NCBI GenBank assembly: GCA_963704755.1
Contig: OY969938.1
Coordinates: 2,550,001-2,582,000, forward strand
DNA: 32,000 nucleotides
Source of the DNA: an uncultured Chloroflexia bacterium
GTDB taxonomy: Bacteria > Chloroflexota > Anaerolineae > Anaerolineales > Anaerolineaceae
Direction: 5' to 3'
This document shows positions 8,726-32,000 of this stretch, in pieces; position 1 is the stretch's first letter; the number at the start of each line of letters is the position of its first letter. The position numbers and the translations under genes were made by a program. Below the pieces are notes generated by a model. It searched no databases. It was not told the DNA's origin and saw nothing but the letters and a program-made list of their open reading frames with translations.

Positions 8726-11700
8726 ATGCCTAGACGGGCGATCTACCGGCTAAATTGGGTGGAAGGAAAACAAACTTACGTACTTACAAACGCCGGTGCG
8801 CCGATCGATGAGCAGCAGGATCCACAACCAGACAGCCCGGCCTGGTTCGCCTGGCTGGATGCCGTGTCCTCCTTCGCCTTTAGCAGTCACTCCGGAACAG
8901 CCTTTACCGCGCGCAAAGAAAAGATGCAGCGCGGTAGCGCATACTGGTATGGCTACCGTTCTCTCCAGGGCAAGACCGTCAAACGATATATAGGCCGGAC
9001 CCCTTATCTATCCCTGGCCCGTTTAGAAGAAATTGCCTTAAGCCTGAGAGGTGACCCAGAACAAAAAGAGGCTCACGATAATGCCGGGCAATGGACGATT
9101 CCTTCAACTAACCAGTACCCACCATCTGATCCAGGCAGTTTACCGGAACCAAAGCCAACCCAGATGATTCCGCTGCTCGAATCTAAACTTTACCCACCCA
9201 GGTTGCCGGTTTCACTGGTAGCGCGGCCCCAACTGAATGCCCGCCTGGAAGCCGGCACAATTCAAAAGCTCACGTTGCTATTGACTCCGGCTGGGTTCGG
9301 CAAAACAACGGCTGTCAGCCAGTGGCTGTCTGAACGCAACTCAAGTTTTAGCCCACACCCAGACAAGGAAGTTTCATCTACCCATCCATCTCCGTCCATT
9401 CCACCATTTGCCTGGCTTACGCTGGACGAAGGTGATAACGACCCGGTGCGATTCTTACGTTACATCATCGCTGCCTGCCAGACCTTTCACCCTAATCTGG
9501 GACGTTCGGCTCTGGCGCTGATTTTCCATGCCCTTCAGCCCCCGTTTGATCTACCCCCAGCGGAGACGATCCTGACATTCCTGCTCAACGACATCATCCA
9601 CTATGTGAGCCACGGGCTCTTAATCCTGGATGATTACCACGTCATTACAGAGCCAACGATCCACGGAATGATGGCTTTTTTCATCGATCATCTTCCTCCA
9701 CCCCTGCATGTAATGCTCCTGACGCGCAGCGAGCCACCGCTGCCCCTGCTCCGCTGGCGGGCACGAGGAGAAATCCAGGAGATCCATACGGCTGATTTGC
9801 GCTTCTCGGTGGAGGAAACGACAGAATTCCTGCATCAGGTAGGTTCAGCAAATTCAATGCCTACCCGGTCGCTCTCAATGGAAACGATCCAGCAGCTTAC
9901 CGGTCGCCTGGAAGGGTGGGCTGCTGGACTACGTCTATTGGTGTTGACTCTGCAAGGGCAAAATGGTCAATTTACGGTTGAGCAGTATCTGGCCCAACTT
10001 GCCGGCGATCCCATTCCTTCCAGTGATCTTCTTGCTTCTTCCCAGCAATCCATTCTGGAATATTTTGTCAGCGAGGTGCTTACCGCTCAGCCCGAACCGA
10101 TCCAATTCTTCCTGCTACAGACCAGCGTACTCGACCGCCTGACCAGCTCATTGTGCGATCAGGTGACCGGCCGGGAAGATAGCGCGACACTGCTGGTTAC
10201 ACTCGAACGAGCCGGGCTTTTTCTGGAATCGCTGAATGGACCGGGGCAGCCCGAGCCATGGTACCGTTATCATGCGCTCTTCGCGGAGGCAATGCGAAGT
10301 GAGGCGCGCAATCGCCTGGGAGAGGCACATTTACGGGAAATGTCCTTGCTAGCGAGCGAGTGGTATCAAGAACATGACCTGCCGGTGGAAGCGGTGGAAG
10401 CGACCTTACGCGCCCAGGAAATCGGGCAAGCGGTGAACCTCATCGAGGCCATCTGCGAACAGGAAAATTTATACGAACCTCATACCTTGCTGAGATGGCT
10501 GCAGCAATTACCGGAAGCGGTCTTTCCCTTGCACCCAACCCTCAGCTTCTTCAACGCGTTGGCATTGCTTTTCACACAGGTGAATACGCCTCTCACCTTG
10601 ATCAAAACGGAAAAGATGAAGGACCGCACGGAGGAGATGCTCCAGAATGCGGAAGCCGGTTGGCGCGAAAGCGGCAACTTGTCCAGACTCGGTGACCTTT
10701 TTGCTTTCCGTGCCCTGATCACCTGGCAATTGGGACAGATTGGAAGCGCCGCCGAGTATGCTCGCAGAGCCCTGGAATTGTTACCCGTTCCGCAGAATCG
10801 CCAGGAGCATACTTATCTGCAGGATATGCAGTGGCGCAGTGTCTGTTTAGCAGTTTTGGGTATGGAAGCCGCCGGCGAAAGGGGATTGGACGAAGCCCGG
10901 CAGTTCCTGCTGCAGGCCTATCAGAGCTGTTCCAGTGCACAAAATCGAGGTTTCGCCCGCGCGACGATCATGATGCTTGCTTCTGTTGACCTGGCGCGGG
11001 GAGAACTCCATCAGCCGGCCGGGGCCATTCGTCAGATACTCTCAGAGGCGAGGGAAGTCAACGATTGGGGAGATGTGACCTATTCGCTTTTTTACCTCTC
11101 AAACATCTATTATGAATGGAATGACCTTGAAATGGTAGAGGAGTTGACGAATGAGGCAGACGAGACCGGCAAGCATGGTTTAGAACCAGAAATACGCGAA
11201 CTCGCTACCTTGCAGCATGTACTCCTCCTCGACCTGCAGGGGAACGTCCCGGCTGCCCAACAGCAATTGAGCAATCTGTTTGCCCGTTTGCAAAGCAGTG
11301 CATCTACACCTGTATCGCTAACCTTCGATGCACTGGATGCTTTGATCCGTTTACAGCTTCGTCTGGGTGACCTCTCTACTGCGAAGCACTATCTAGAGGT
11401 TTTTGCACAATATGAGGACCATGCACCGACAGCTCTCATTTTCAAACGAGATATCCTTCAGGTTCGCCTTCTACTGGCACAGGGAGAAATGCAGGTTGCA
11501 CAATCGCGCCTCGAAACCTATCTCCAACTTGCATCTGCCAAACAGCAGATGCGCAATGTACTGGAAATCCTGATCCTGATGACACTTGCATACGCGAGCA
11601 ATCGACAAGAAGCACAGGCATACAAGACACTCCGGCGGGCGCTCTTACAGGCACAGGAAGAAGGGTTTATCCGCCTTTTCGTCGATGAGGGCAAGCCTTT

Positions 11701-15106: not shown

Positions 15107-15153
15107 CGCATTGAACAGATCGGAGTTCCAGGAACTCCGATCTGTTCAATGCG
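15107..15153. repeat. Perfect 23-bp palindrome between the convergent MFS and HTH genes
   Basis: cgcattgaacagatcggagttcc a ggaactccgatctgttcaatgcg. There is no U-tract on either side, so it may be a bidirectional stop or a REP-like element. Confidence 0.7.
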
Positions 15154-15204: not shown

Positions 15205-15621
15205 TTATTCTTCCAAATACTTCCCCACCAGCACCAGCATCGCCTCCACCACCGCCTTCCTCACCCCAGGTTCGGGGATCTTCGCGACGGCCAGGGCAAT
15301 ATCCACCGCCTCGGGTGGCAGGTTCTCCGTATCCAAACCACGCACATCGAAAATCTTCAACGTCGGCCAGCCGGTCATGGTCAGGAACTCGTTCGGGTTG
15401 ATCCCAAAGTGGTCCGCCAACAGGATGCAGACGTGCATGCTCGGCCGCTGGCCCTCCAGCACCCGGCGTACGCCCTGGTGATCTAGTCCCGCGCGCAGGC
15501 TGGCTTCGCGGTAGCTTTCGTTGTTCTTCTCCAGAAGTTCCCGTAAACGGGTGACCATCGGTTCCGGGTCGTACTTGCTATTGATCGTTTCTCGGCGTGC
15601 TTTGGCAATTGGTTTTTCCAT
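15205..15621 (-). CDS. Xre/Cro-like HTH protein, divergent from the serine recombinase
   Basis: 138 aa. HTH region ASLRAGLDHQGVRRVLEGQRPSMHVCILLADHFGINPNEFL. An 80-nt divergent intergenic region is shared with the recombinase gene, an arrangement typical of integrase/repressor modules. Confidence 0.75.
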   Translation of the reverse strand: MEKPIAKARRETINSKYDPEPMVTRLRELLEKNNESYREASLRAGLDHQGVRRVLEGQRPSMHVCILLADHFGINPNEFLTMTGWPTLKIFDVRGLDTENLPPEAVDIALAVAKIPEPGVRKAVVEAMLVLVGKYLEE

Positions 15622-15701: not shown

Positions 15702-17291
15702 ATGGAGACAGAACGACTGCGAGCGGTCGGGTACCGCAGGGTATCCATGCGCGAGCAGGTGGATGGCCATAGCCTGGACGCGCAGGCCAAGAACATTCAG
15801 GACTACGCGGCCGGGCAAGGTTGGGACTTACTGGAAATCTACACCGATGCCGGGATCTCGGCCAAGAAAGACAGCTACCGGCCGGACCTGGCCCGCCTGA
15901 TGCAGGATGCCGGGGAAGGCAAGTTCGACGTGGTCGTGGTGGATAAGATCGACCGTTTCTACCGCCACCTGGCCGGGCTGCTCTCTGCACTGGATGATCT
16001 GCGTCACATGAATGTGGCCTTTGCCTCGGTGCAGGAACGCCTGGATTTCACTTCACCCTGGGGAAAGCTCACCCTCACTGTACTGGGTATCCTGGCAGAG
16101 TTGTACCTGGATAACCTTCGCCAGGAGACGATCAAAGGCAAAAAGGAGCGTGCTCGCAAGGGCTTGTGGAACGGCCAGCCGCCCATCGGTTATTGTAAAG
16201 GGCTGTGCGCAGAGTGTGAGGACCCCAACGGCAAGGGCTACTGTCCCGACTACGGTCAAGCGGATAAGACCGATGGGAAACATTTGGTCGCCCACCCCAT
16301 CGACAGCCGGGTGGTCAGGCTGGTCTTTTCCTGGTACCTGGAAGGGACCGCGTCCGATGGCACCATTGCCGAGCGGCTCAACCAGTACAAAATGGAGCTG
16401 CCCAACGGCGAAAAAGTACAGGTACGCCAACGTGGCCACGTCGGTACAACCGGGGCTGGCCCATTCACGAAAGACGTGATCCGAGATATGCTCAACCGGG
16501 TTTTCTACACCGGTATGCTGCCCTACAAAACCTCTGCCGCTTTGGGAGCCCGGCGGACCCGCCGCAGCGAGTTGGCCACCGCCGAGTTGTTCAAAGGCCA
16601 GCACCCGGCCTTGATCAGCATGGAGGACTACAAAAAGGCTCAGGAAAAGCGCAAGATGCGCATGGTGGATCACAGCTCGCGCTGGCACACGCCGGCGCGG
16701 ATCTTCCCCTTGACCGGGCTTCTTTTCTGCGGCTACTGTGGTAGTCCGATGCGCGGTACCTCGACCATGGAGCGGCGCTATTACAGGGACGCGTCCAGCA
16801 TTGATAAGACATTGGATTGTTCGCAGCACACCTTGCGGGCCGACGTCCTGGAGGACCAGGCAGCCATCATCCTAAAAGAGATTCTGAAGAGTTGGGAAGA
16901 AAAGAACGCTTTGTCCGACCTGGAAAACGCGCAGCAAGATATGGAACAGCGTTTCGAGCGTGCCCGCGAGCTGTACCTGGAAGGCGATATTTCCCGCGAG
17001 CAGTTCCAGGCCGAAAAAGAGCAGTACGAGCATGCCAATGAGCGCTTGCACCACTCAAATGCGAATGTTATAATAACACTAGCCAGAACAATGAAGCCTA
17101 GTTTAGAGAACTGGGACAGCACCTTACCAATGGAACGGAAAAAGCTGCTACGGACGGCAATCCGAGCAGCCTTTGTCCGAGGCAACACCTTTGTGGCCCT
17201 ACAGACTACCGAGGTGTTTTGGCCTCTAACCGAAACTATTAGTTGTCAGTGCGGGGAGGGCGGGATTCGAACCCGCGGTCGAGGTTTATAG
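15702..17291 (+). CDS. Large serine recombinase (integrase type)
   Basis: 529 aa with AGGAGG before the ATG. Resolvase catalytic domain AVGYRRVSMREQVDGHSLDAQ...DAGISAKK...VVVVDKIDRFYR. Recombinase domain, zinc ribbon LLFCGYCGSPMRG, and a coiled-coil C-terminus. The last 13 codons (...CGEGGIRTRGRGL*) are read from the complement of tRNA-Ser(GCU). Confidence 0.9.
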   Translation: METERLRAVGYRRVSMREQVDGHSLDAQAKNIQDYAAGQGWDLLEIYTDAGISAKKDSYRPDLARLMQDAGEGKFDVVVVDKIDRFYRHLAGLLSALDDLRHMNVAFASVQERLDFTSPWGKLTLTVLGILAELYLDNLRQETIKGKKERARKGLWNGQPPIGYCKGLCAECEDPNGKGYCPDYGQADKTDGKHLVAHPIDSRVVRLVFSWYLEGTASDGTIAERLNQYKMELPNGEKVQVRQRGHVGTTGAGPFTKDVIRDMLNRVFYTGMLPYKTSAALGARRTRRSELATAELFKGQHPALISMEDYKKAQEKRKMRMVDHSSRWHTPARIFPLTGLLFCGYCGSPMRGTSTMERRYYRDASSIDKTLDCSQHTLRADVLEDQAAIILKEILKSWEEKNALSDLENAQQDMEQRFERARELYLEGDISREQFQAEKEQYEHANERLHHSNANVIITLARTMKPSLENWDSTLPMERKKLLRTAIRAAFVRGNTFVALQTTEVFWPLTETISCQCGEGGIRTRGRGL

Positions 17292-17343
17292 CCCCGACAA
17301 CCGCTTAGCAGGCGGCCCCATTCAACCACTCTGGCACCTCCCC
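17252..17343 (-). tRNA. tRNA-Ser (anticodon GCU), no encoded CCA
   Basis: Minus-strand sequence: GGGGAGGTGCCAGAGTGGTTGAATGGGGCCGCCTGCTAAGCGGTTGTCGGGGCTATAAACCTCGACCGCGGGTTCGAATCCCGCCCTCCCCG. It folds by hand into:
- 7-bp acceptor GGGGAGG/CCTCCCC
- anticodon loop CTGCTAA
- long variable arm
- T arm GCGGG-TTCGAAT-CCCGC. Confidence 0.85.
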
Positions 17344-17436: not shown

Positions 17437-17521
17437 CGGAGGGAGAGGGATTCGAACCCACGGTGGGTTGCCCCACACCTGTTTTCAAGACAGGCGCCTT
17501 AAACCACTCGGCCATCCCTCC
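17437..17521 (-). tRNA. tRNA-Ser (anticodon UGA), no encoded CCA
   Basis: Minus-strand sequence: GGAGGGATGGCCGAGTGGTTTAAGGCGCCTGTCTTGAAAACAGGTGTGGGGCAACCCACCGTGGGTTCGAATCCCTCTCCCTCCG. Hand fold:
- acceptor GGAGGGA/TCCCTCC
- anticodon stem CCTGT/ACAGG with loop CTTGAAA
- long variable arm
- T stem with one U-U mismatch. Confidence 0.8.
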
Positions 17522-21077: not shown

Positions 21078-21163
21078 TTTGTAACTTTGCAGCCTGATGG
21101 GTAAGAACCCCGAATTTGAGATGCTTGCCCGGGCGAAGCCCGGGCAAGCATCTCAAATTCGGG
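21078..21163 (+). repeat. Module-plus-hairpin unit (CCGAATTTGAG type) between the convergent nuclease and response-regulator genes
   Basis: The module is TTGTAA (21079-84), 17 nt, then TAAGAA (21102-07). It is followed by a perfect 26-bp stem, 21109-21134 pairing with 21138-21163 (cccgaatttgagatgcttgcccgggc gaa gcccgggcaagcatctcaaattcggg). Confidence 0.8.
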
Positions 21164-21184
21164 AGATCTATTCGGCTGTTTCCT

Positions 21185-21868
21185 CTACGCCCCCTCCAGG
21201 CGATAGCCGTACCCGCGCACGGTGAGGATGTACCGCGGCTCATCGGGGTGCGGCTCGATTTTTTTGCGCAGCAGCCAGACGTAACGCCGCACAGTGGTTG
21301 TATTTTCCTGGCGGTAGGCCCCCCACACTTCACGCACCAGGTCGGCTTCGGCCACGGCCTGGCCCTGGCGGCGTAAGAGCACTTCCAGCAAGCGGAATTC
21401 GGTCGGCGTGAGGGCAATCACTTCTTCGCCCCGGCGGACCTCATGGCGGGCCAAATCAACCTGGAGATCGCCCACATTAAAGAGGTTATGGTCCTCTCTT
21501 TTGGGCTGGTGGACCCGGTTGAGCACCGCCTGGATGCGGGCGATCATCTCGGCAAAGCTGAACGGCTTGGTAATGTAGTCGTCCACTCCCAGGCGGAAAC
21601 CGCGCAGTTTATCCGCTTCCGAGCTTTTGGCGGTCAGCAGAATGATCGGCAGATCCGACAGCTCGCGTAAACGGGCGGTCACTTCCCAGCCGTCCATGCC
21701 GGGCATCATCACGTCCAAAACAACCAGGTCGGGCTGCTCGCGGTAAGCCTGGCGCAGCGCTTCATTGCCGTTTTTGGCCGACACGACCTCGAAATTTTCC
21801 TGTTTCAAAAAATCGATCAAAAAACCCAACAGGGTCGGGTCGTCATCCACCACCAGGATTTTTGTCAT
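21185..21868 (-). CDS. OmpR/PhoB-family response regulator
   Basis: 227 aa. Receiver domain (ILVVDDD...DLVVLDVMMPGMDG...LTAK) plus a winged-helix output (LTPTEFRLLEVLL...TVRGYGYRL). Its ATG overlaps the kinase stop (ATGA at 21868..21865). Confidence 0.9.
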   Translation of the reverse strand: MTKILVVDDDPTLLGFLIDFLKQENFEVVSAKNGNEALRQAYREQPDLVVLDVMMPGMDGWEVTARLRELSDLPIILLTAKSSEADKLRGFRLGVDDYITKPFSFAEMIARIQAVLNRVHQPKREDHNLFNVGDLQVDLARHEVRRGEEVIALTPTEFRLLEVLLRRQGQAVAEADLVREVWGAYRQENTTTVRRYVWLLRKKIEPHPDEPRYILTVRGYGYRLEGA

Positions 21869-24126
21869 TGCGTTTCCCCTCTCTCTCCGGCCAGCGGCTG
21901 GGTAGCCTCGCTTTCATCCGCCAGGGGCAGCCAGCAGGTAAAGCAGGCGCCCCCGCTAGGGCGGTTTTCAACGCTGACCTGGCCTTGCATGGCTTCCAGC
22001 AGGCGTTTGACGATGTATAATCCCAGGCCGTGCCCATATACGGTCTGGCTGTCTTCGCTGTTGGAGCGGTAAAACCGTTCGAACAGGTAAGGCAGGGATG
22101 CAGCGCTGATGCCCGGGCCATGATCGCTGACTTTGATCCAGGCCCTGCCGTCCTGGCTGCCGCCGCTCACTTCGATCGGGCCGGAGGGCGCGTACTTGAA
22201 AGCGTTATCCAGCAGGTGAAAAAGCACGCTGGTCAAGGCCTGTTCGTCCGCCAGCAGGCTGGGGCCGTCTTCGGCCAGTTCCCAGACCACACGTTCCGCG
22301 CCGGGCAGGTGCGCGATCTGGTTTTTCAGCGAGTGGACGATCCCACCCAGACCCATCGGAGCCGGGTAAAGGGGCAAACGGCCGGCGTCCAGGGCGGAGA
22401 TGTCCAGGATAGTCTCGACGAAGCGGGTCAGGCGCTGGATCTCGGCCCGCACCAGACGCAGGACCTGGCTGGAGCGGTCACCCAATGGCCGGGTGCCATA
22501 AACCAGCAGCTCGATCCCGCTGTTGATATTGGTCAGCGGGGCGCGCAGCTCGTGCGAAACCAGCGAGACAAAGTCCGATTTCAGCCGGTCGAGCTGCTGC
22601 AAGGCCTGGTTCTGAGCCTCCAGGCGGGCATACGCCTGGCTGAGGTCGTTGGTCTTTTCCATCACCCGCTTTTCCAGCCCGGCATTCAGGATTTCCAATT
22701 CGGTGTGGTCGGCCGCGATCTGGCGGTAGGCCGTCTGCAAATCGGCCTGTTGTTGTTTTTGCAGGCTCAAGTCGTGGGCCGTCCCCGCCAGGGCCAGGCG
22801 CTCCCAGGTGGATCCGCCCGGGATGGCCGGCAGCACCGGCCGTAGGGATAGAAACGCCGGGAGAGTCGAGCCATCTTTACGGTGCAGCTCGATCTCGGCC
22901 GACCAGCCCGCCTCGCCTCCATCCAGGCCGGCCGGCCGGCGGCCCAGGCCGACCAGGGCGGCTGTGTCCTGACCGGTGGCGATGAGCAAGTCGAGGGGAT
23001 GCCCCAGCAATTCCGTTTCACGGTCGTAGCCGGTCGCGGCCAGCAGAGCCGGGTTGACCAGGCTGAAGCGCCCGCGCGCATCGCAAACGAAGGCCGGCTC
23101 GGCCACGCTGCTGACCAGGCTGGCATACTGCTGGAATTCGAGCTCGCCGGCCAGAATCCCCTGGCGGGCGATCAGCACCAGGGCCAGCAGGAAGGTGCCC
23201 CACAGGCCGATCGGGTTGATCAGGTTGTTCAGGCGCCAGTCCAGAACGGCAAACCAGCCTAACAGGATGGTCACCAACAGCGGCACGAGCGAGCGCAGCC
23301 GGCCGAGCCACTGGCGGGTGGCCATTCCAATGCGGTCACTGGCATTTACCCCCAGGCGGACCTGCACCAAAGCAGCGGCGGTCATGGCCAGGTTGCCGGC
23401 CACCCACCCCAGGTCGACCGGGCTGCCGGACTGGTAGCTCCCCTTCGATATAAATGAACCGTAAGCCAGGTCGCTCAACGAAAAGGCCAGCAGCGCCAGG
23501 TTGATCCACCAGAAGGACGCCATCCCCCGTTCCGGCATGCCGGCCAAAAACAGGTTGACCATGATCAGCAGCAAGGCCAGGTCGCAGAACGGCGAAACCA
23601 GGTTGATCCAGGCGGCCGGCGTGGATAGAGCCCCCAGTTGTGGTTTGATGAACAAAAGATAAATCATCGCCAGCAGGGCAGCGGAGGTGACCCCAATGTC
23701 GATGCCCAGGCGCAGCCGGGCCGGCTGGTAAAACGCGGACCGCCGGAAACACAGCAGCCCTACCGCCAGCAAGATGGCCCCGCACAGGTACAACGCAGCC
23801 AGCGCGTTGGAAAATTCAGCGGAATCAGGTGCAATGGCCGCCCCGCTGACTCGCAGCGAGCCACAGGCAAACCAGAGCCACAAACCGGCTGCCAGCCAGG
23901 TCCAGGCCGTGCGCAAAGGCCGCCTGGTTCGCCAGGCGGCCCAACTGGCCAGCCCCGCGCCCGACAGAGCAGTCGCAAGGATGGTCAGGCTGCCGATCCA
24001 CGTCCGTTCGGCGGGATCGCTGCGTCCCCACAACAGCCAGGCCAGGTAGAACAACATGAATACCGACCCGGCAGCGAAGAGCAGCCACCGGTCATTCCTG
24101 GCCTGGGGGCGTGGGGTTAAGGACAT
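21865..24126 (-). CDS. Sensor histidine kinase with a large multi-pass membrane N-terminal domain and a PAS-like region
   Basis: 753 aa with about nine hydrophobic helices in the first ~330 aa. H-box SHELRAPLTNI, N-box LLDNAFKYA, G-boxes DHGPGI and GHGLGL. Confidence 0.88.
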   Translation of the reverse strand: MSLTPRPQARNDRWLLFAAGSVFMLFYLAWLLWGRSDPAERTWIGSLTILATALSGAGLASWAAWRTRRPLRTAWTWLAAGLWLWFACGSLRVSGAAIAPDSAEFSNALAALYLCGAILLAVGLLCFRRSAFYQPARLRLGIDIGVTSAALLAMIYLLFIKPQLGALSTPAAWINLVSPFCDLALLLIMVNLFLAGMPERGMASFWWINLALLAFSLSDLAYGSFISKGSYQSGSPVDLGWVAGNLAMTAAALVQVRLGVNASDRIGMATRQWLGRLRSLVPLLVTILLGWFAVLDWRLNNLINPIGLWGTFLLALVLIARQGILAGELEFQQYASLVSSVAEPAFVCDARGRFSLVNPALLAATGYDRETELLGHPLDLLIATGQDTAALVGLGRRPAGLDGGEAGWSAEIELHRKDGSTLPAFLSLRPVLPAIPGGSTWERLALAGTAHDLSLQKQQQADLQTAYRQIAADHTELEILNAGLEKRVMEKTNDLSQAYARLEAQNQALQQLDRLKSDFVSLVSHELRAPLTNINSGIELLVYGTRPLGDRSSQVLRLVRAEIQRLTRFVETILDISALDAGRLPLYPAPMGLGGIVHSLKNQIAHLPGAERVVWELAEDGPSLLADEQALTSVLFHLLDNAFKYAPSGPIEVSGGSQDGRAWIKVSDHGPGISAASLPYLFERFYRSNSEDSQTVYGHGLGLYIVKRLLEAMQGQVSVENRPSGGACFTCWLPLADESEATQPLAGERGETQ

Positions 24127-24166
24127 GCCTTCATTTTACCGATCCCGGTGAGGGGATGCAAGGAGA

Positions 24167-24502
24167 GTGTCGGGTGTCGGGTGTCGGGTGTCGGAGTGTC
24201 AAGCGCGTGTTTCCGTGTTACAGTTTTACAGTGTTTCAGTGCATTCGGGACATGTGCCTGGCTAAGTAGGCGAGGCACTGAATCACAGTGAAAAGGATAG
24301 CAGTTCTCGCGCATAGCCTGGTAACCAAAGCACTGAATCACTGCGACAACGAAACACTTTATCTATGAAAGCTGGTCGCGCACTTGGCTTTGCAGGCAAG
24401 ACACCGAACCACTTTATCCATGAAAGCCGGTCACGCGCTCAACCTGGTAACCAAAGCACTGAATCACTGAGACACTGTAACACGGTATCACGCCCCCGAC
24501 AC
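24167..24502. repeat. Repeat-rich, inverted-repeat-bounded intergenic element (MITE-like or regulatory)
   Basis: - GTGTCGG x4 in tandem (24167-24194).
- Imperfect ~45-bp terminal inverted repeats (24188-24242 vs 24456-24502), each built of three 8-nt xTxCAGTx steps.
- A perfect 27-bp direct repeat cctggtaaccaaagcactgaatcactg (24317-24343 and 24443-24469).
- A 29-bp direct repeat matching at 25/29 (24355-24383 and 24410-24438).
- A 12-mer GCACTGAATCAC x3 (24275, 24330, 24456) plus an inverted near-copy at 24231-24242. Confidence 0.8.
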
Positions 24503-25252
24503 TTATCTTTTCTCCAACCGATCGCAGTAAATGCGGATCGCGCTGCGCATAAAGGTGGGTAGATCGGGGTGGATGCGGGTGAAATTGGCGTTGAAGTCGG
24601 GGTTCTCGTAGTACATTTCACCCAACCCGCGTAATCGTTGGATATCCGGCTCGTAGAAATAGCGCAGGTGGCGATGCCAGCGGGTCAAGATGGCCTGCAC
24701 GGCCGGGCTGCCCGGGCCGCCATCCATGGCGGTCACCAGGTCGCGGTAGATCGCATTGCCTTCGGCCAGGATGGCCTGTTGTTCTTCTTTGGTGTAGCTG
24801 GCCCAATCCCGCACGCCTTCGAAAGCCTTTTCGCCGTACTTCTCGCGGATTTCTTGTTCGTATTGCTTTTGTTTCTCGCTGCTAAAACCTCCAAAAAGGT
24901 TTACGTCGTCCATGGCAGTGTTTCCTTTCACATATTGGATCGTCCGGTCAACCGTCTCGATAAGCAGCCCCAGGCGGTCCACTTCATCCATTAATGCGGA
25001 CCGGTGTCTTTCAAGGGCGCCTACCAAATCGTAGCCCGGCTGGTTGACAGCCGACTTGATCTCATCCAGGCTCAACCCAACTTCCTTGTAAAACAGGATC
25101 TGCTGCAGCTTGAGCATGGCCGGTTCTTCGTAATAACGGTAACCGTTGCTGCCAACAGAGGTCGGGGAGAGCAGGCCGATCTCGTCGTAGTAGTGCAGGG
25201 TCCGTATACTGACGCCTGCCAGGTCGGCTAATTTCTTGACGGTGTACACCAT
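24503..25252 (-). CDS. MerR-family regulator with a TipAS-like C-terminal domain
   Basis: 249 aa. N-terminal MerR HTH YTVKKLADLAGVSIRTLHYYDEIGLLSP...GYRYY. The C-terminal helical domain (...YYENPDFNANFTRIHPDLPTFMRSAIRIYCD) resembles TipAS/Mta antibiotic-recognition domains. Confidence 0.85.
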   Translation of the reverse strand: MVYTVKKLADLAGVSIRTLHYYDEIGLLSPTSVGSNGYRYYEEPAMLKLQQILFYKEVGLSLDEIKSAVNQPGYDLVGALERHRSALMDEVDRLGLLIETVDRTIQYVKGNTAMDDVNLFGGFSSEKQKQYEQEIREKYGEKAFEGVRDWASYTKEEQQAILAEGNAIYRDLVTAMDGGPGSPAVQAILTRWHRHLRYFYEPDIQRLRGLGEMYYENPDFNANFTRIHPDLPTFMRSAIRIYCDRLEKR

Positions 25253-25268
25253 TGCAACCTCGCTTGAA

Positions 25269-25299
25269 AGGATAAACTATAACGTAACGTAAATGTCAA
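25269..25299 (-). promoter_or_regulatory. MerR-type promoter with a 19-bp spacer upstream of the MerR-family gene
   Basis: The minus strand reads TTGACA (25299..25294), a 19-nt spacer tttacgttacgttatagtt containing repeated ACGT dyads, then TATCCT (25274..25269). The ATG at 25252 follows ~16 nt later. An over-long 19-bp spacer is the hallmark of MerR-activated promoters. Confidence 0.4.
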
Positions 25300-25304
25300 G
25301 GGTA

Positions 25305-25367
25305 TTGTAGCAGAAAGTGGGTATTTTGGTTGTTTTTCGTATGCTTCACATGCGAAAAACAACCAAA
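25305..25367 (+). repeat. Module-plus-hairpin unit U1 (shortened module; TTTTTCG...CGAAAAA hairpin)
   Basis: The module remnant is ttgtagcagaaagtgggta. The 19-bp stem is 25325-25343 pairing with 25349-25367 (tttggttgtttttcgtatg cttca catgcgaaaaacaaccaaa), with one G-T wobble. Confidence 0.7.
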
Positions 25368-25372
25368 GAAAA

Positions 25373-25457
25373 CTGTAATTGCCCAACCAAACGGGTTAGA
25401 ACCTCGAATTTGATATGTTTGCGCGGGCTTTGACCGCGCAAACATATCAAATTCGAG
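25373..25457 (+). repeat. Module-plus-hairpin unit U2
   Basis: CTGTAA (25373-78), 17 nt, then TTAGAA (25396-401). A perfect 24-bp stem follows, 25403-25426 pairing with 25434-25457 (ctcgaatttgatatgtttgcgcgg gctttga ccgcgcaaacatatcaaattcgag). Confidence 0.8.
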
Positions 25458-25547
25458 TACTTTCTTGTATAGGGCTGAGTTGATATGAAAACGATCATTG
25501 CCATACCGTATCACATCGCTTACTTTTTGATATAATTCTTAATCATC

Positions 25548-25630
25548 TTTGTAACTGCTCAGCTTAAATGGTAAGAATTCCGAATTTGAGGTATTTGCGG
25601 TTGAATATCCTGCAAATACCTCAAATTCGG
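25548..25630 (+). repeat. Module-plus-hairpin unit U3, 60 nt upstream of dnaN
   Basis: TTGTAA (25549-54), 17 nt, then TAAGAA (25572-77). A 19-bp perfect stem follows, 25580-25598 pairing with 25612-25630 (ccgaatttgaggtatttgc ... gcaaatacctcaaattcgg). Confidence 0.8.
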
Positions 25631-25689
25631 GAACTCCCTTAACATGAGCCTGGGAAGTTAACATCTTTCATCAGGAAGGCGGCTAATTT

Positions 25690-26817
25690 ATGAAAGCAAC
25701 TGTCATGCAGCAGCAACTTGCCCATGGTTTAGGGATCGTTTCGCGCGCTGTCTCTCCCCGAAGTACGCTGCCTGTCCTGGCTAACATTCTGGTAGCGACA
25801 GACGAAGGCCGGCTGCGCCTCTCGGCGACGAACCTGGAATTGGGAACTACTTGCTGGATCCCCGCTCAAATCAACGAAGAAGGAGCCGTGACCGTTCCGG
25901 CGCGCACCTTCACCGACCTGGTCAGCGCCCTTCCGTCGGACAACGTCCAGCTCACATTGAATACCCGTACGCAAACGCTGAATGTGCGCTGCGGCTCCAA
26001 CAGTACCGATATCAAAGGCATCGACGCGCAGGAATTTCCTCCCATCCCGGTGCCGGATCTGAATGAGGGCGTCAGCCTGAACGTGTCGGACTTCAAAGAG
26101 ATGATCCAACAGGTGGTGTTCGCCTCATCCACCGACGAAGCCCGGCCTGTGCTCCAGGGCGTGTTGATGACCATCAACGAAAGCGAAGTGACCCTGGCAG
26201 CCACCGACGGCTTCCGCATTTCGGTGCGTAAAGCCAACCTGGCCAACCCGGTGAACCAGAATGTCTCGGTGATCATCCCGGCCCGGGCCTTGAGCGAGCT
26301 GGCCCGTATCGCAGCCGACGGCGACGAAACACTGACCATGAATGTGCCCGCCGGCCGCGGGCAGGTTATCTTCCACCTGCGCGACGCCGAGCTGGTTTCA
26401 CAGTTGATCGACGGCAACTTCCCGCCTTACCAGGCGATCATCCCGCGCTCGTCCAAGACCCACACGGTAATCTCCACGGCAGCCCTGTTGAAAGCCTGCA
26501 AACAGGCCGAAATCATCGCCCGTGAAGGCAACAACGTGATTCGCCTGAACGTGCTCTCCCAGGGGGACGAACCGGGTGTGGTCGAAATCTCGGCCCAATC
26601 CGAGGAAACCGGCACCAGCGATATCAAAGTGGACGCCAATGTGGACGGGCCGGCCCTGCTGATTGCCTTCAACGTCAAGTTCCTGCGCGAGGTCCTGGAC
26701 GTGGTCAAGACCCCCTCGGTGGTGCTGGAGGTCAACCAGAACAACACCCCGGCCACCCTGCGCCCCATCGGCGACGAAAATTTCGTGCACGTCATCATGC
26801 CCATGCATTTGGGTTAA
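25690..26817 (+). CDS. dnaN: DNA polymerase III beta sliding clamp
   Basis: 375 aa. MKATVMQQQLAHGLGIVSRAVSPRSTLPVLANILVATDEGRLRLSATNLELG... and a C-terminal ...RPIGDENFVHVIMPMHLG are typical of DnaN across three clamp domains. Confidence 0.92.
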   Translation: MKATVMQQQLAHGLGIVSRAVSPRSTLPVLANILVATDEGRLRLSATNLELGTTCWIPAQINEEGAVTVPARTFTDLVSALPSDNVQLTLNTRTQTLNVRCGSNSTDIKGIDAQEFPPIPVPDLNEGVSLNVSDFKEMIQQVVFASSTDEARPVLQGVLMTINESEVTLAATDGFRISVRKANLANPVNQNVSVIIPARALSELARIAADGDETLTMNVPAGRGQVIFHLRDAELVSQLIDGNFPPYQAIIPRSSKTHTVISTAALLKACKQAEIIAREGNNVIRLNVLSQGDEPGVVEISAQSEETGTSDIKVDANVDGPALLIAFNVKFLREVLDVVKTPSVVLEVNQNNTPATLRPIGDENFVHVIMPMHLG

Positions 26818-26827
26818 ATTTTTGAAA

Positions 26828-26913
26828 TTTTGTAACTACTCAGGCACGTGCAAGAATTAACCGAATTTGAGAGGTTTGCGAGGGCAAAGCCCTCGCAAAC
26901 CTCTCAAATTCGG
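26828..26913 (+). repeat. Module-plus-hairpin unit downstream of dnaN
   Basis: TTGTAA (26830-35), 16 nt, then AAGAAT (26852-57). A 25-bp stem follows, 26861-26885 pairing with 26889-26913 (ccgaatttgagaggtttgcgagggc aaa gccctcgcaaacctctcaaattcgg). Confidence 0.8.
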
Positions 26914-26954
26914 AGTTTTTACCCCTTGGGCTTGGGCAGTTACGAATTTTTTTT

Positions 26955-26998
26955 GAGGGTCAGGCGGGTGCTTCACACCCGCCTGACCCTCATTTTTT
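26955..26998 (+). terminator. Rho-independent terminator (plus strand)
   Basis: A 16-bp GC-rich stem, gagggtcaggcgggtg cttca cacccgcctgaccctc, followed by aTTTTTT (26993-26998). It would terminate dnaN and/or a transcript starting at the 26828 unit. Confidence 0.8.
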
Positions 26999-27024: not shown

Positions 27025-27087
27025 AAAGTATGTTGATGATATTTTTTCGCGGGTTTCACCCGCGAAAAAATATCATCAACATACTTT
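27025..27087. repeat. Perfect 29-bp hairpin overlapping the stop codon of the last zinc-ribbon gene
   Basis: aaagtatgttgatgatattttttcgcggg tttca cccgcgaaaaaatatcatcaacatacttt, with arms 27025-27053 and 27059-27087. The core TTTTTCGCGGG...CCCGCGAAAAA is related to the hairpins at 8616 and 25325. The TAA stop at 27088..27086 lies in the right arm. Confidence 0.8.
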
Positions 27088-29477: not shown

Positions 29478-29716
29478 GCATGTTCGTACTTTGGATGGTA
29501 TTGCTCAGCATCCGCAAAATTTTAATTTCCGAACTGGCCTGAGTAGTAACTTCAGGAACTTATTTAATTTGGCATAATTATTGCTACCTTTAGGGCAACT
29601 GCGTTTCAGCAAGATTACCCGTTTTATTGGAGCTTTATCCCTTTCAAATCTGAATATTCACAAGCCAGAAGAATCTATTTATACTTGATCTGCGCGACTA
29701 GACAATGAAGAAAGAT

Positions 29717-29758
29717 AGAGGCGTGCATGGGGGGACCGCCTCCATGCACGCCTCTTTT
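29717..29758 (+). terminator. Terminator-like hairpin inside the leader of the 29815 gene
   Basis: agaggcgtgcatgg (29717-30) pairs with ccatgcacgcctct (29742-55), with 2-3 extra inner pairs, followed by TTTT (29755-58). It lies 57 nt upstream of the ATG at 29815, and there is no plus-strand gene upstream. Confidence 0.5.
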
Positions 29759-29814
29759 CGAAAACAATCGGTGCAACCCAATTTTTTTCCTTATCCGTAT
29801 ATTTTAGGAATTTC

Positions 29815-30991: not shown

Positions 30992-31678
30992 ATGAAAAAA
31001 CGTCCTGTCTGGATCATGATCGGCGGAATTGCCCTGGTAGTGGCTTTGGTGGTGGGCTCCCGCCTGGCGATTGGGGCCAGTTTACCCTCCGGGCCGGCCT
31101 GGCTGACGAACGACATTCAGGAGTACAGCCAGACCCTGACCGCCAATCCCAATCCCACCCAGGCTGCGCTGCTTTCACAAAAATTAAACCTGCTCGAACA
31201 GGCGAACCCGAACCAGATCAAAGGGGTGGAAGGCGAGTCAGCCAAGGCAGCTAACCCGTGTGACCTGATGCCCACCGCGCGACCCCAGGTGCAGTCCGAC
31301 CGGGTGGAGGGCATCCTGGAGGGCCTGCTGGCGCCGATCAACCCTAGCAGCTTCAGCGGGACAAACCAGTGGCAGGGCTACGTCAACGACCAGTGGACGG
31401 TGGTCTATGCCGGCGCCGATGGGCAGAATTTGCAACAGGGCCTGCTGTGGGTAGATGTTGAAAGCACCGGTGAGTTTGACAGCTACCCGGCGGCCCAGCC
31501 CGGCGGTGCGCTGACCATCCTTTCGGCCGAGAATAATGTCCTGCTCCTCTCGGATGAATCCGGCGATACGCTTTACTTCGACATGGCCGCGCGCAGCTAC
31601 CTCAGCGTCCCGGACCAGTCCCTGCCGACCCTGGAGCCCCAACCTACCCTCACCCCCACTCCGTCGATCTGCGGATAG
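30992..31678 (+). CDS. Membrane-anchored or secreted hypothetical protein (228 aa)
   Basis: N-terminal anchor MKKRPVWIMIGGIALVVALVVGSRLA. It starts 10 nt after the previous stop, with AAGGA upstream, so it is probably co-transcribed. Confidence 0.7.
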   Translation: MKKRPVWIMIGGIALVVALVVGSRLAIGASLPSGPAWLTNDIQEYSQTLTANPNPTQAALLSQKLNLLEQANPNQIKGVEGESAKAANPCDLMPTARPQVQSDRVEGILEGLLAPINPSSFSGTNQWQGYVNDQWTVVYAGADGQNLQQGLLWVDVESTGEFDSYPAAQPGGALTILSAENNVLLLSDESGDTLYFDMAARSYLSVPDQSLPTLEPQPTLTPTPSICG

Positions 31679-31684
31679 TAACCC

Positions 31685-31744
31685 CGAATTAAACGAATAT
31701 GCGGAGGCTTCGCCTCCGCATATTCGTTTAATTCGTTTTTTTTT
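31685..31744 (+). terminator. Rho-independent terminator (perfect 24-bp stem plus T9)
   Basis: cgaattaaacgaatatgcggaggc ttc gcctccgcatattcgtttaattcg (31685-31735), followed by nine T (31736-31744). It starts 7 nt after the TAG at 31676-78. Confidence 0.85.
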
Positions 31745-31754
31745 GATAGGCTAA

Positions 31755-31930
31755 GCAGTTTGACAATGACCCATTCGTCACCCCACCCCCGGCCCCGCCC
31801 TTCAAGGGGCGGGGAGTCAAACGGAAATTTGAGGTTTGTTGGGCCAAATGGCCCTACAAACCTCAAATTTCCGTATCTTTCCCCCTTGCTTGGAAGGGGA
31901 GATGAAAAATGGGCTATTGTCAAAGCAGTC
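31755..31930. repeat. Composite nested palindromic (MITE-like) element
   Basis: - Outer imperfect inverted repeats: gcagtttgacaatgacccatt (31755-75) vs aatgggctattgtcaaagcagtc (31908-30).
- Inner GC hairpin: ccccgccc/gggcgggg (31793-31814).
- Central 25-bp hairpin with one mismatch: acggaaatttgaggtttgttgggcc aaat ggccctacaaacctcaaatttccgt (31821-31874).
- Small hairpin: cccctt/aagggg (~31882-31899). Confidence 0.7.
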
Positions 31931-32000
31931 ACTAAAAATTATCTGTGTCCATCTGTGACCATCAGTGGCTTTTCCCCACCTTTGCGCGGACGATGGCTTT

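Follow-up and report, generated by a model that had tools for sequence, protein, structure and literature searches.

The 32,000-nucleotide stretch analyzed here (hereafter, the window) belongs to an uncultured Chloroflexia bacterium of the family Anaerolineaceae (contig OY969938.1, positions 2,550,001 to 2,582,000). It carries four short units in which a promoter-like module is followed by a long perfect hairpin, and they raise the question of what such units are and how substitutions in one arm of each hairpin come to be mirrored in the other. An earlier note on this DNA had proposed sigma-70 promoters firing into hairpins, that is, small hairpin-RNA genes or promoter-plus-leader cassettes. 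Our analysis makes it highly probable that the units are miniature inverted-repeat transposable elements (MITEs) of about 110 bp, with ends of the type found in the ISBst12 group of insertion sequences (ISs), most likely moved in trans, and that their stems are kept matched by copying of DNA from arm to arm.

Four units with perfect 19- to 26-bp hairpins, as described in the earlier note, were confirmed in the sequence; we designate them copies A1 to A4 of subfamily A. The perfect arms measure 26 nt in A1 (21109-21134/21138-21163), 24 nt in A2 (25403-25426/25434-25457), 19 nt in A3 (25580-25598/25612-25630), and 25 nt in A4 (26861-26885/26889-26913). Exact CGAATTTGA stands at both hairpin feet in all four copies, and the elements, folded as single-stranded DNA, gave z scores of -8.7 to -10.3 relative to dinucleotide shuffles. 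The inner stems vary among the four copies, and each difference has its mirror change in the opposite arm. The unit length of about 85 nt first proposed proved too short: beyond the hairpin, each unit runs about 28 nt farther rightward through an inverted, more degraded copy of the module (for example, 25631-25660 and 26914-26943), which makes the full unit a quasi-palindromic element of 108 to 112 nt in the window. What had looked like a promoter module is the left terminal inverted repeat GTAACTGCTCAGCC, together with a sub-terminal region and flanking target DNA. Since the element is nearly symmetric, the claim that all four copies share one orientation holds weakly (scores of 14 versus 9 and 18 versus 13).

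Copy A1 (21081-21188) begins with the left inverted repeat GTAACTTTGCAG and contains the hairpin 21109-21163 with the loop GAA; its right arm is degenerate, and its final bases overlap the stop codon of a response-regulator gene (21185-21868, minus strand). Copy A2 (25375-25486, 112 nt) has the ends GTAATTGCCCAACC and GGGCTGAGTTGATAT on either side of the hairpin 25403-25457, and its flanks, AGAAAACT and GAAAACGA, share the core GAAAAC, a decayed target duplication (6/8). Copy A3 (25551-25660, 110 nt), located in the dnaN leader, extends from the left end GTAACTGCTCAGC through the hairpin 25580-25630 to the right end CCTGGGAAGTTA, and is bounded by an 8-bp target duplication matching at 7 of 8 positions, TCATCTTT (25543-25550) and ACATCTTT (25661-25668). 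Copy A4 (26832-26943, 112 nt) starts 14 nt past the dnaN stop codon, has the ends GTAACTACTCAGGC and GCTTGGGCAGTTAC and the hairpin 26861-26913 with the loop AAA, and is likewise bounded by a 7/8 duplication, GAAATTTT (26824-26831) and GAATTTTT (26944-26951). The right ends in the window are degraded, yet recognizable in A2 to A4 and in a fifth element, B, described below. The right arm of A4 also shows an odd similarity (15/21) to the conserved 3' end of dnaN.

The suggestion that the units form a portable, multicopy family was supported by related genomes. A search with the pattern CCGAATTTGAG-N14-44-CTCAAATTCGG, with one genome per species, matched at least 88 loci, and among the matches listed, all were in four Anaerolineaceae metagenome-assembled genomes, where 8 kb of a MITE-bearing locus held as many as 4 copies. 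The MITE-rich assemblies include DAIQPZ01, JAFGLU01, CAZMMI01, and DATKLX01. The same hairpin pattern gave no match in viral contigs. In these relatives, the elements are noncoding, multicopy, and 104 to 113 nt long, and the module lies inverted on both sides of the hairpin in the layout GTAACTGCTCAGCC..AGAAAGTTG-[hairpin]-GTCTTTTTCAC..GGCTGAGCAGTTAC. Terminal inverted repeats of the form GTAACTGCTCAG... / ...CTGAGCAGTTAC were present in 59 elements. Among 45 elements with two ends, the flanking 8-nt duplication was perfect in 15 and matched at 7 of 8 positions in 7, a level of identity that at most 0.1% of mismatched-pair controls attained; the duplicated targets had an A+T content of 71%. 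The MITE ends are 12- to 14-bp terminal inverted repeats, GTAACT(G/A)CTCAG(C/G)C, and an 8-bp AT-rich target is duplicated upon insertion.

The dnaN protein cluster led to two relatives, L175 and L176, through which an insertion could be compared with its empty site. The dnaN gene of L176 is 87% identical in DNA to that of the window and has the same MerR gene upstream. L176 is empty at the A3 site: the block ctttttgatataattcttaa is followed almost immediately by the dnaN ribosome-binding site, and the MerR-dnaN spacer of the window is longer by 119 nt, that is, the 110-nt A3 plus the 8-bp duplication plus 1 nt. This filled site and its empty ortholog are direct evidence of mobility. Elsewhere in the same spacer, L176 carries a 41-nt hairpin-less element with the flanks GATTAGTT/GAATAGTT, and the L175 spacer holds, at yet another site, an element of 104 nt whose central palindrome differs and whose duplication, CTTCACTT, is perfect. 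When relatives of nine other window proteins were sought for more empty sites, only singleton clusters were obtained. Past dnaN, L176 has an A-type hairpin with one complete arm at 1953-2062, which starts 5 nt after the stop codon in the orientation opposite to that of A4 and lacks the arm on the dnaN side. Compared with 26832-26943 of the window, the 3' flank of dnaN was either hit independently or rearranged.

The ends of the MITEs resemble those of ISs of the ISBst12 group, which belongs to the IS66 family. ISDge4 of Deinococcus geothermalis, a member of this group, has the ends GTGACTACTCAGCA / GTAACTGCTCAGCA and an 8-bp direct repeat (PMC12898284). ISGka on the Geobacillus plasmid pHTA426, also of the ISBst12 group, has the ends GTATCTATTCAGCC / GTAACTATTCAGCC and the duplication GACGAGTT; an IS on a Chloroflexota plasmid ("Ca. 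Chlorohelix"), the ends of which were located by an unbiased inverted-repeat search, has the end GTAACAATTCAGCC and the duplication AATTATTT. Comparable ISs occur in Deinococcus wulumuqiensis (end GTAACTGCTCAGCA, duplication TAAAAATC) and Bacillus thuringiensis (end GTAACTACTCAGCT, duplication TCAAATT(G/A)). The end consensus of 49 metagenomic ISs, GTAACT[A/G][C/T]TCAG[G/C]C, agrees with that of the MITEs, GTAACT[G/A]CTCAG[C/G]C, at all 12 conserved positions, although the former is somewhat circular, as those ends were found by motif search; perfect 8-bp duplications flank 8 of the metagenomic IS copies. ISBst12, ISDge4, and ISGka thus share with the MITEs the inverted repeats GTAACTNNTCAGC and 8-bp duplications. 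They differ in size and content, since the ISs are about 1.5 to 1.6 kb long and encode a single DDE transposase of about 450 to 485 aa, whereas the MITEs are noncoding and about 110 nt long, and the central perfect palindrome is present in the MITEs but not in the ISs. Judging from these ends, an ISBst12-type DDE transposase would move the MITEs in trans.

We then considered the stems. The compensated differences seen among the four window copies extend to 58 family members, and the covariation, for which the earlier note had proposed a test, is strong. In an alignment of 58 elements with 25 stem pairs, 97.2% of the stem cells were paired, a value that is partly by construction in the outer 11 bp of each arm, which the retrieval pattern had fixed; both sides had changed in 23 of the 25 pairs (129 cells). 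None of 500 shuffles reached the observed pairing or covariation, and both collapsed when the register was slid. Most of the double changes are held by the inner stem pairs, which the retrieval pattern left unconstrained. Moreover, among 11 elements found through their ends alone, 10 had perfect arms of 21 to 27 bp with altered outer stems (TTTAGAG, CTGAAAATGAG, CCGAGTTTGAG).

The earlier note had argued that such compensated divergence needs either selection on the folded structure or arm-to-arm copying, and our evidence favors the latter. Non-Watson-Crick cells comprised 13 G·T, 12 A·C, and 28 other combinations, so there is no enrichment of wobble pairs. Many stem changes are transversions, for example, GC to CG in 16 cells. 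The loop is oriented at random with respect to the asymmetric outer arms (TTCG in 13 elements versus CGAA in 14); in one pair of loci (L001 and L038), it is reverse-complemented while the elements are 100% identical elsewhere, and two further pairs with flipped loops are 95 to 96% identical. The lack of G·U enrichment, the transversions, and the loop flips argue for a cause at the DNA level rather than for selection on RNA. The palindrome is 97% paired, whereas the sub-terminal arms are 54% complementary and keep distinct left and right consensus sequences, which indicates that homogenization stops at the hairpin foot.

Template switching between the arms of inverted repeats causes arm homogenization and spacer inversion (PMC8604942, PMC8794818). 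The predictions of this form of mutagenesis (PMC8604942, PMC8794818, PMC7202029) match the elements described here, with the difference that template switching is a mutational mechanism and not a class of element, and that we infer it from patterns across copies. These signatures make template switching in DNA the most likely source of the mirrored substitutions. During replication, the polymerase would switch template between the hairpin arms and would thereby copy a new mutation from one arm to the other, sometimes inverting the loop, and the arms would evolve in concert without need for a functional RNA. Copies that lie within transcription units, as A3 does in the dnaN leader, would be transcribed as long hairpins that may alter termination or mRNA stability, as a side effect and not as the reason for the family's existence.

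Several points, besides the partly constructed pairing of the outer stems, weigh against this interpretation of the units. Copy A1 has a poor right end and no recognizable target duplication. The mobilizing enzyme, which the earlier note had rightly considered worth seeking, was found neither in the window nor in the 88 MITE-bearing loci (about 600 kb): a tblastn search with the pHTA426 transposase revealed no ISBst12-type transposase, the best match having an E value of 0.28. Conversely, none of 80 metagenomic ISBst12-like loci, scanned for the hairpin and for short inverted-repeat pairs, held a MITE, so in none of the loci searched did element and enzyme occur together. The ISs and the MITE are alike over their first 14 to 17 nt only, too little to trace the MITE to a particular IS. 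Finally, selection for a perfect palindrome, through transposition or an RNA effect, may act as well. Two other routes to an enzyme gave nothing: a regular expression for canonical IS66 TnpC motifs, which do not fit the ISBst12 group, had no match in the loci, and the inverted-repeat pairs 0.3 to 6 kb apart there all bracket ordinary genes and are the ends of neighboring MITEs, not of ISs.

The window contains other elements related to the A copies, and modules in reverse orientation were indeed present at about 8690-8700, at 29539-29550, and near 31920, as had been reported. The subfamily B element (8591-8700, 110 nt) has the ends ATACTACTCACC / GGCCTGAGCAGTCAC, of the same kind as the A ends, around a central hairpin (8616-8674; 27-nt arms with one mismatch) unrelated in sequence to the A center, and its 8-bp target duplication is perfect (AATTTTCT at 8583-8590 and 8701-8708). 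A B-type hairpin without clear ends at 25321-25376, 75 to 77% similar to 8611-8674, directly abuts A2; it is probably what remains of an older element, with A2 inserted into or beside it. In L175, a perfect hairpin with 32-nt arms (TTTTTGTTCGTTGATTTTTTTCAGGGCTGGGC ttc ...) sits at the corresponding place upstream of dnaN (9680-9760), and both have a T-rich stem resembling GTTGTTTTT. The region 29498-29550 (53 nt, GTATTGCTCAGC ... GGCCTGAGTAGTAAC) is a hairpin-less derivative from which the central palindrome has been deleted and at which no target duplication is left. Such derivatives are common in the related genomes too, in line with the known instability of long DNA palindromes.

Near the right edge of the window, a possible half element (31683-31755, plus strand) lies 5 nt past the stop codon of the gene 30992-31678. 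It comprises a perfect hairpin (31685-31735) that starts with CCGAATT, a run of nine T residues, and the right-end-like GGCTAAGCAGTTTGAC; the hairpin and T run look like an intrinsic terminator of that gene. A palindrome of about 180 nt follows at 31745-31935, with arms in 31798-31897 (78% complementary), outer inverted repeats TTTGACAAT.. at 31752-31770 and 31912-31930, and a central hairpin GGAAATTTGAGGTTTGTTGGGCCA/TGGCCCTACAAACCTCAAATTTCC (31821-31870) that resembles an A-type stem; it may be a related larger element or a set of nested insertions. More long perfect hairpins, with arms of 17 to 30 bp and no MITE ends, lie between genes at 15107-15153, 26954-26992, 27025-27087, and 29718-29760. 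Several of them have T runs on one or both sides, and perfect hairpins of unusual length seem to serve as terminators in this genome.

Could the perfect palindrome itself be a selected module, serving as a cruciform hinge or as a mobile bidirectional terminator that has been co-opted repeatedly, perhaps at 31685-31755? The same architecture and length in three subfamilies fit either proposal, and we regard this as possible but rather unlikely. Taken by itself, the idea that transposition needs the palindrome, either as a cruciform hinge joining the ends of a 110-bp element or in a fold-back single-strand intermediate, is unlikely. It would mean that only lineages with perfect stems proliferate. 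Three subfamilies with unrelated centers (A, B at 8591-8700, and the L175 element) keep a long perfect palindrome and a length of about 104 to 112 nt, and the palindrome is paired far better than the sub-terminal arms (97% versus 54%), as such a role would lead one to expect. However, this role is entirely inferential, the autonomous ISs have no such palindrome, and the 41-nt hairpin-less derivative of L176 (GATTAGTT/GAATAGTT) keeps its target duplication, meaning that it either transposed without a hairpin or lost it afterward at the same site.

Selection on a transcribed RNA hairpin, in the form of a mobile bidirectional terminator or an mRNA-stabilizing or -processing hairpin with classical covariation, is quite unlikely. 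ERIC, Correia, and other bacterial MITEs have been reported to influence termination or mRNA stability. In the consensus from the metagenome-assembled genomes, GTCTTTTTCAC comes after the hairpin on one strand and CAACTTTCTT on the opposite strand, the hairpin of A4, alone among the four window copies, scored as terminator-like in a consensus scan, and 31685-31735 with its T run resembles an exapted half element. Set against this are the stem changes themselves, among which G·U pairs are about as frequent as A·C pairs and both are rarer than the other mismatches, transversions are many, and loops flip freely. In addition, the elements show no strand or orientation bias relative to genes, A1 to A3 lack a T run, and A3 lies in the leader of an essential gene.

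The proposal that each unit is a sigma-70 promoter (TTGTAA, a 17-nt spacer, and TAAGAA or AAGAAT) driving a hairpin-RNA gene or a promoter-plus-leader cassette is very improbable. Its best cases are A3 and A4, which have a -35 match of 4/6, a 17-nt spacer, and AAGAAT with A2 and T6, and A3 stands directly upstream of dnaN. Yet a consensus scan detected a sigma-70-like site at none of the four modules; A1 and A2 have no T at position 6 of the "-10," and the family consensus for that hexamer is GAAAGT, so the "-10" lacks conservation. The T or TT at the start of the "-35" belongs to the flanking target DNA and varies between copies, with TT in only about 7 of 45 related copies. The module sequence recurs, inverted, on the far side of the hairpin and matches the ends of ISBst12-group ISs, which identifies it as a terminal inverted repeat. 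Nor does gene context favor a promoter: in tandem contexts, 9 copies run along the genes and 13 against them, without orientation bias; the placement among tandem, convergent, and divergent intergenic regions follows background proportions (with crude gene calling); and A1 and A4 lie between convergent genes. An Rfam search of the window at gathering thresholds returned two tRNAs and nothing at the units.

For dnaN, a likelier promoter is at hand. The extended -10-like TGATATAAT at 25529-25537 (plus strand), within the block ctttttgatataattcttaa, lies outside and upstream of A3, and this TGaTATAAT block is conserved in the three sequences compared by eye (the window, L175, and L176). L176, which lacks A3, would have its dnaN expressed from the same region. 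The block is thus a better candidate for the dnaN promoter than the A3 module, in which case A3 would merely be carried in the dnaN leader.

Spread of REP/REPIN-type elements by a RAYT (IS200-like Y1) transposase, a possibility raised in the earlier note, is barely credible: REP, BIME, and REPIN elements are likewise abundant, intergenic, and palindromic, and REP doublets are about 100 nt overall, but REPs lack DDE-type inverted repeats and target duplications, whereas the elements here have 8-bp duplications and ISBst12-like ends and no GTAG-type head, and no Y1 transposase was seen among the window open reading frames (ORFs) scanned. Inverted repeats and target duplications also exclude IS200/IS605-type palindrome-associated elements and integron attC sites, the latter additionally because the stems are perfect and not bulged.

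The remainder of the window contains further features of interest. Type I-C cas genes occupy 691-6933 (minus strand), among them those for Csd1/Cas8c (691-2625) and Cas5d (2627-3358). Cas3 is apparently divided among three ORFs, which cover the HD domain (4940-5920), the helicase (4089-4964), and a C-terminal part (3366-3971), and its gene may be a pseudogene. A WYL-WCX regulator (5947-6933) lies beside them. The G+C content of the cas genes is 44 to 50%, below the 55% of the window as a whole, which may reflect horizontal acquisition of the cluster. What is left of an IS3-family transposase (7269-7995, minus strand) is broken into short ORFs (HTH_21 at 7732-7995 and rve_2/rve_3 at 7269-7496). 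A 294-nt direct repeat (92% identical) occurs at 8117-8410 and 15208-15501, each copy within an HTH_3-type ORF. Between the two copies lie a MalT/LuxR regulator, an amidohydrolase, and an MFS transporter, and next to the pair are a gene for a large serine recombinase (15702-17291) and two tRNA genes (17252-17343 and 17437-17521). The region may represent an integrated element whose attachment flanks were duplicated. Upstream of a histidine-kinase/response-regulator operon, dense repeats fill 24160-24500 (four tandem GTGTCGG, a 55-nt tandem pair at 24345-24454, and three copies of AAGCACTGAATCACTG), with inverted copies at 24195-24245 and 24453-24503. They do not form a DnaA-box cluster, and no such cluster was found near dnaN.

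Bacterial MITEs with long hairpins include Correia/NEMIS of Neisseria, ERIC/YPAL of enterobacteria, RUP of pneumococcus, and Nezha of cyanobacteria. The MITEs described here resemble them in being quasi-palindromic, intergenic elements of 100 to 150 nt with inverted repeats, a target duplication, a high copy number, and occasional effects on neighboring transcripts. They differ in that their ends are of the ISBst12/IS66 type, their hosts are Anaerolineaceae (Chloroflexota), and their central 19 to 27 bp are strictly perfect and covary rapidly, with flipping of the loop. The class of element, an ordinary sort of selfish DNA, and the mechanism proposed for the stems are already known; the family itself is apparently undescribed, as neither MITEs of Anaerolinea nor MITEs derived from ISBst12 turned up in our literature search.

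Anaerolineaceae genomes each carry dozens, and probably up to hundreds, of the 110-nt elements, which in annotation should be masked or labeled as MITEs rather than called promoters, terminators, or small-RNA genes. The 23 compensated pairs out of 25 provide a clean natural case of "RNA-like" covariation that DNA template switching, and not selection on structure, can produce, and they call for caution in covariation-based RNA discovery. For the biology of mobile elements, our results connect a MITE family with ISBst12, a little-studied branch of IS66, and show insertions on both sides of the essential gene dnaN, in its leader and in its 3' flank. If the palindrome did act as a hinge, it would let the two transposase-binding ends meet in an element whose length is below the persistence length of DNA.

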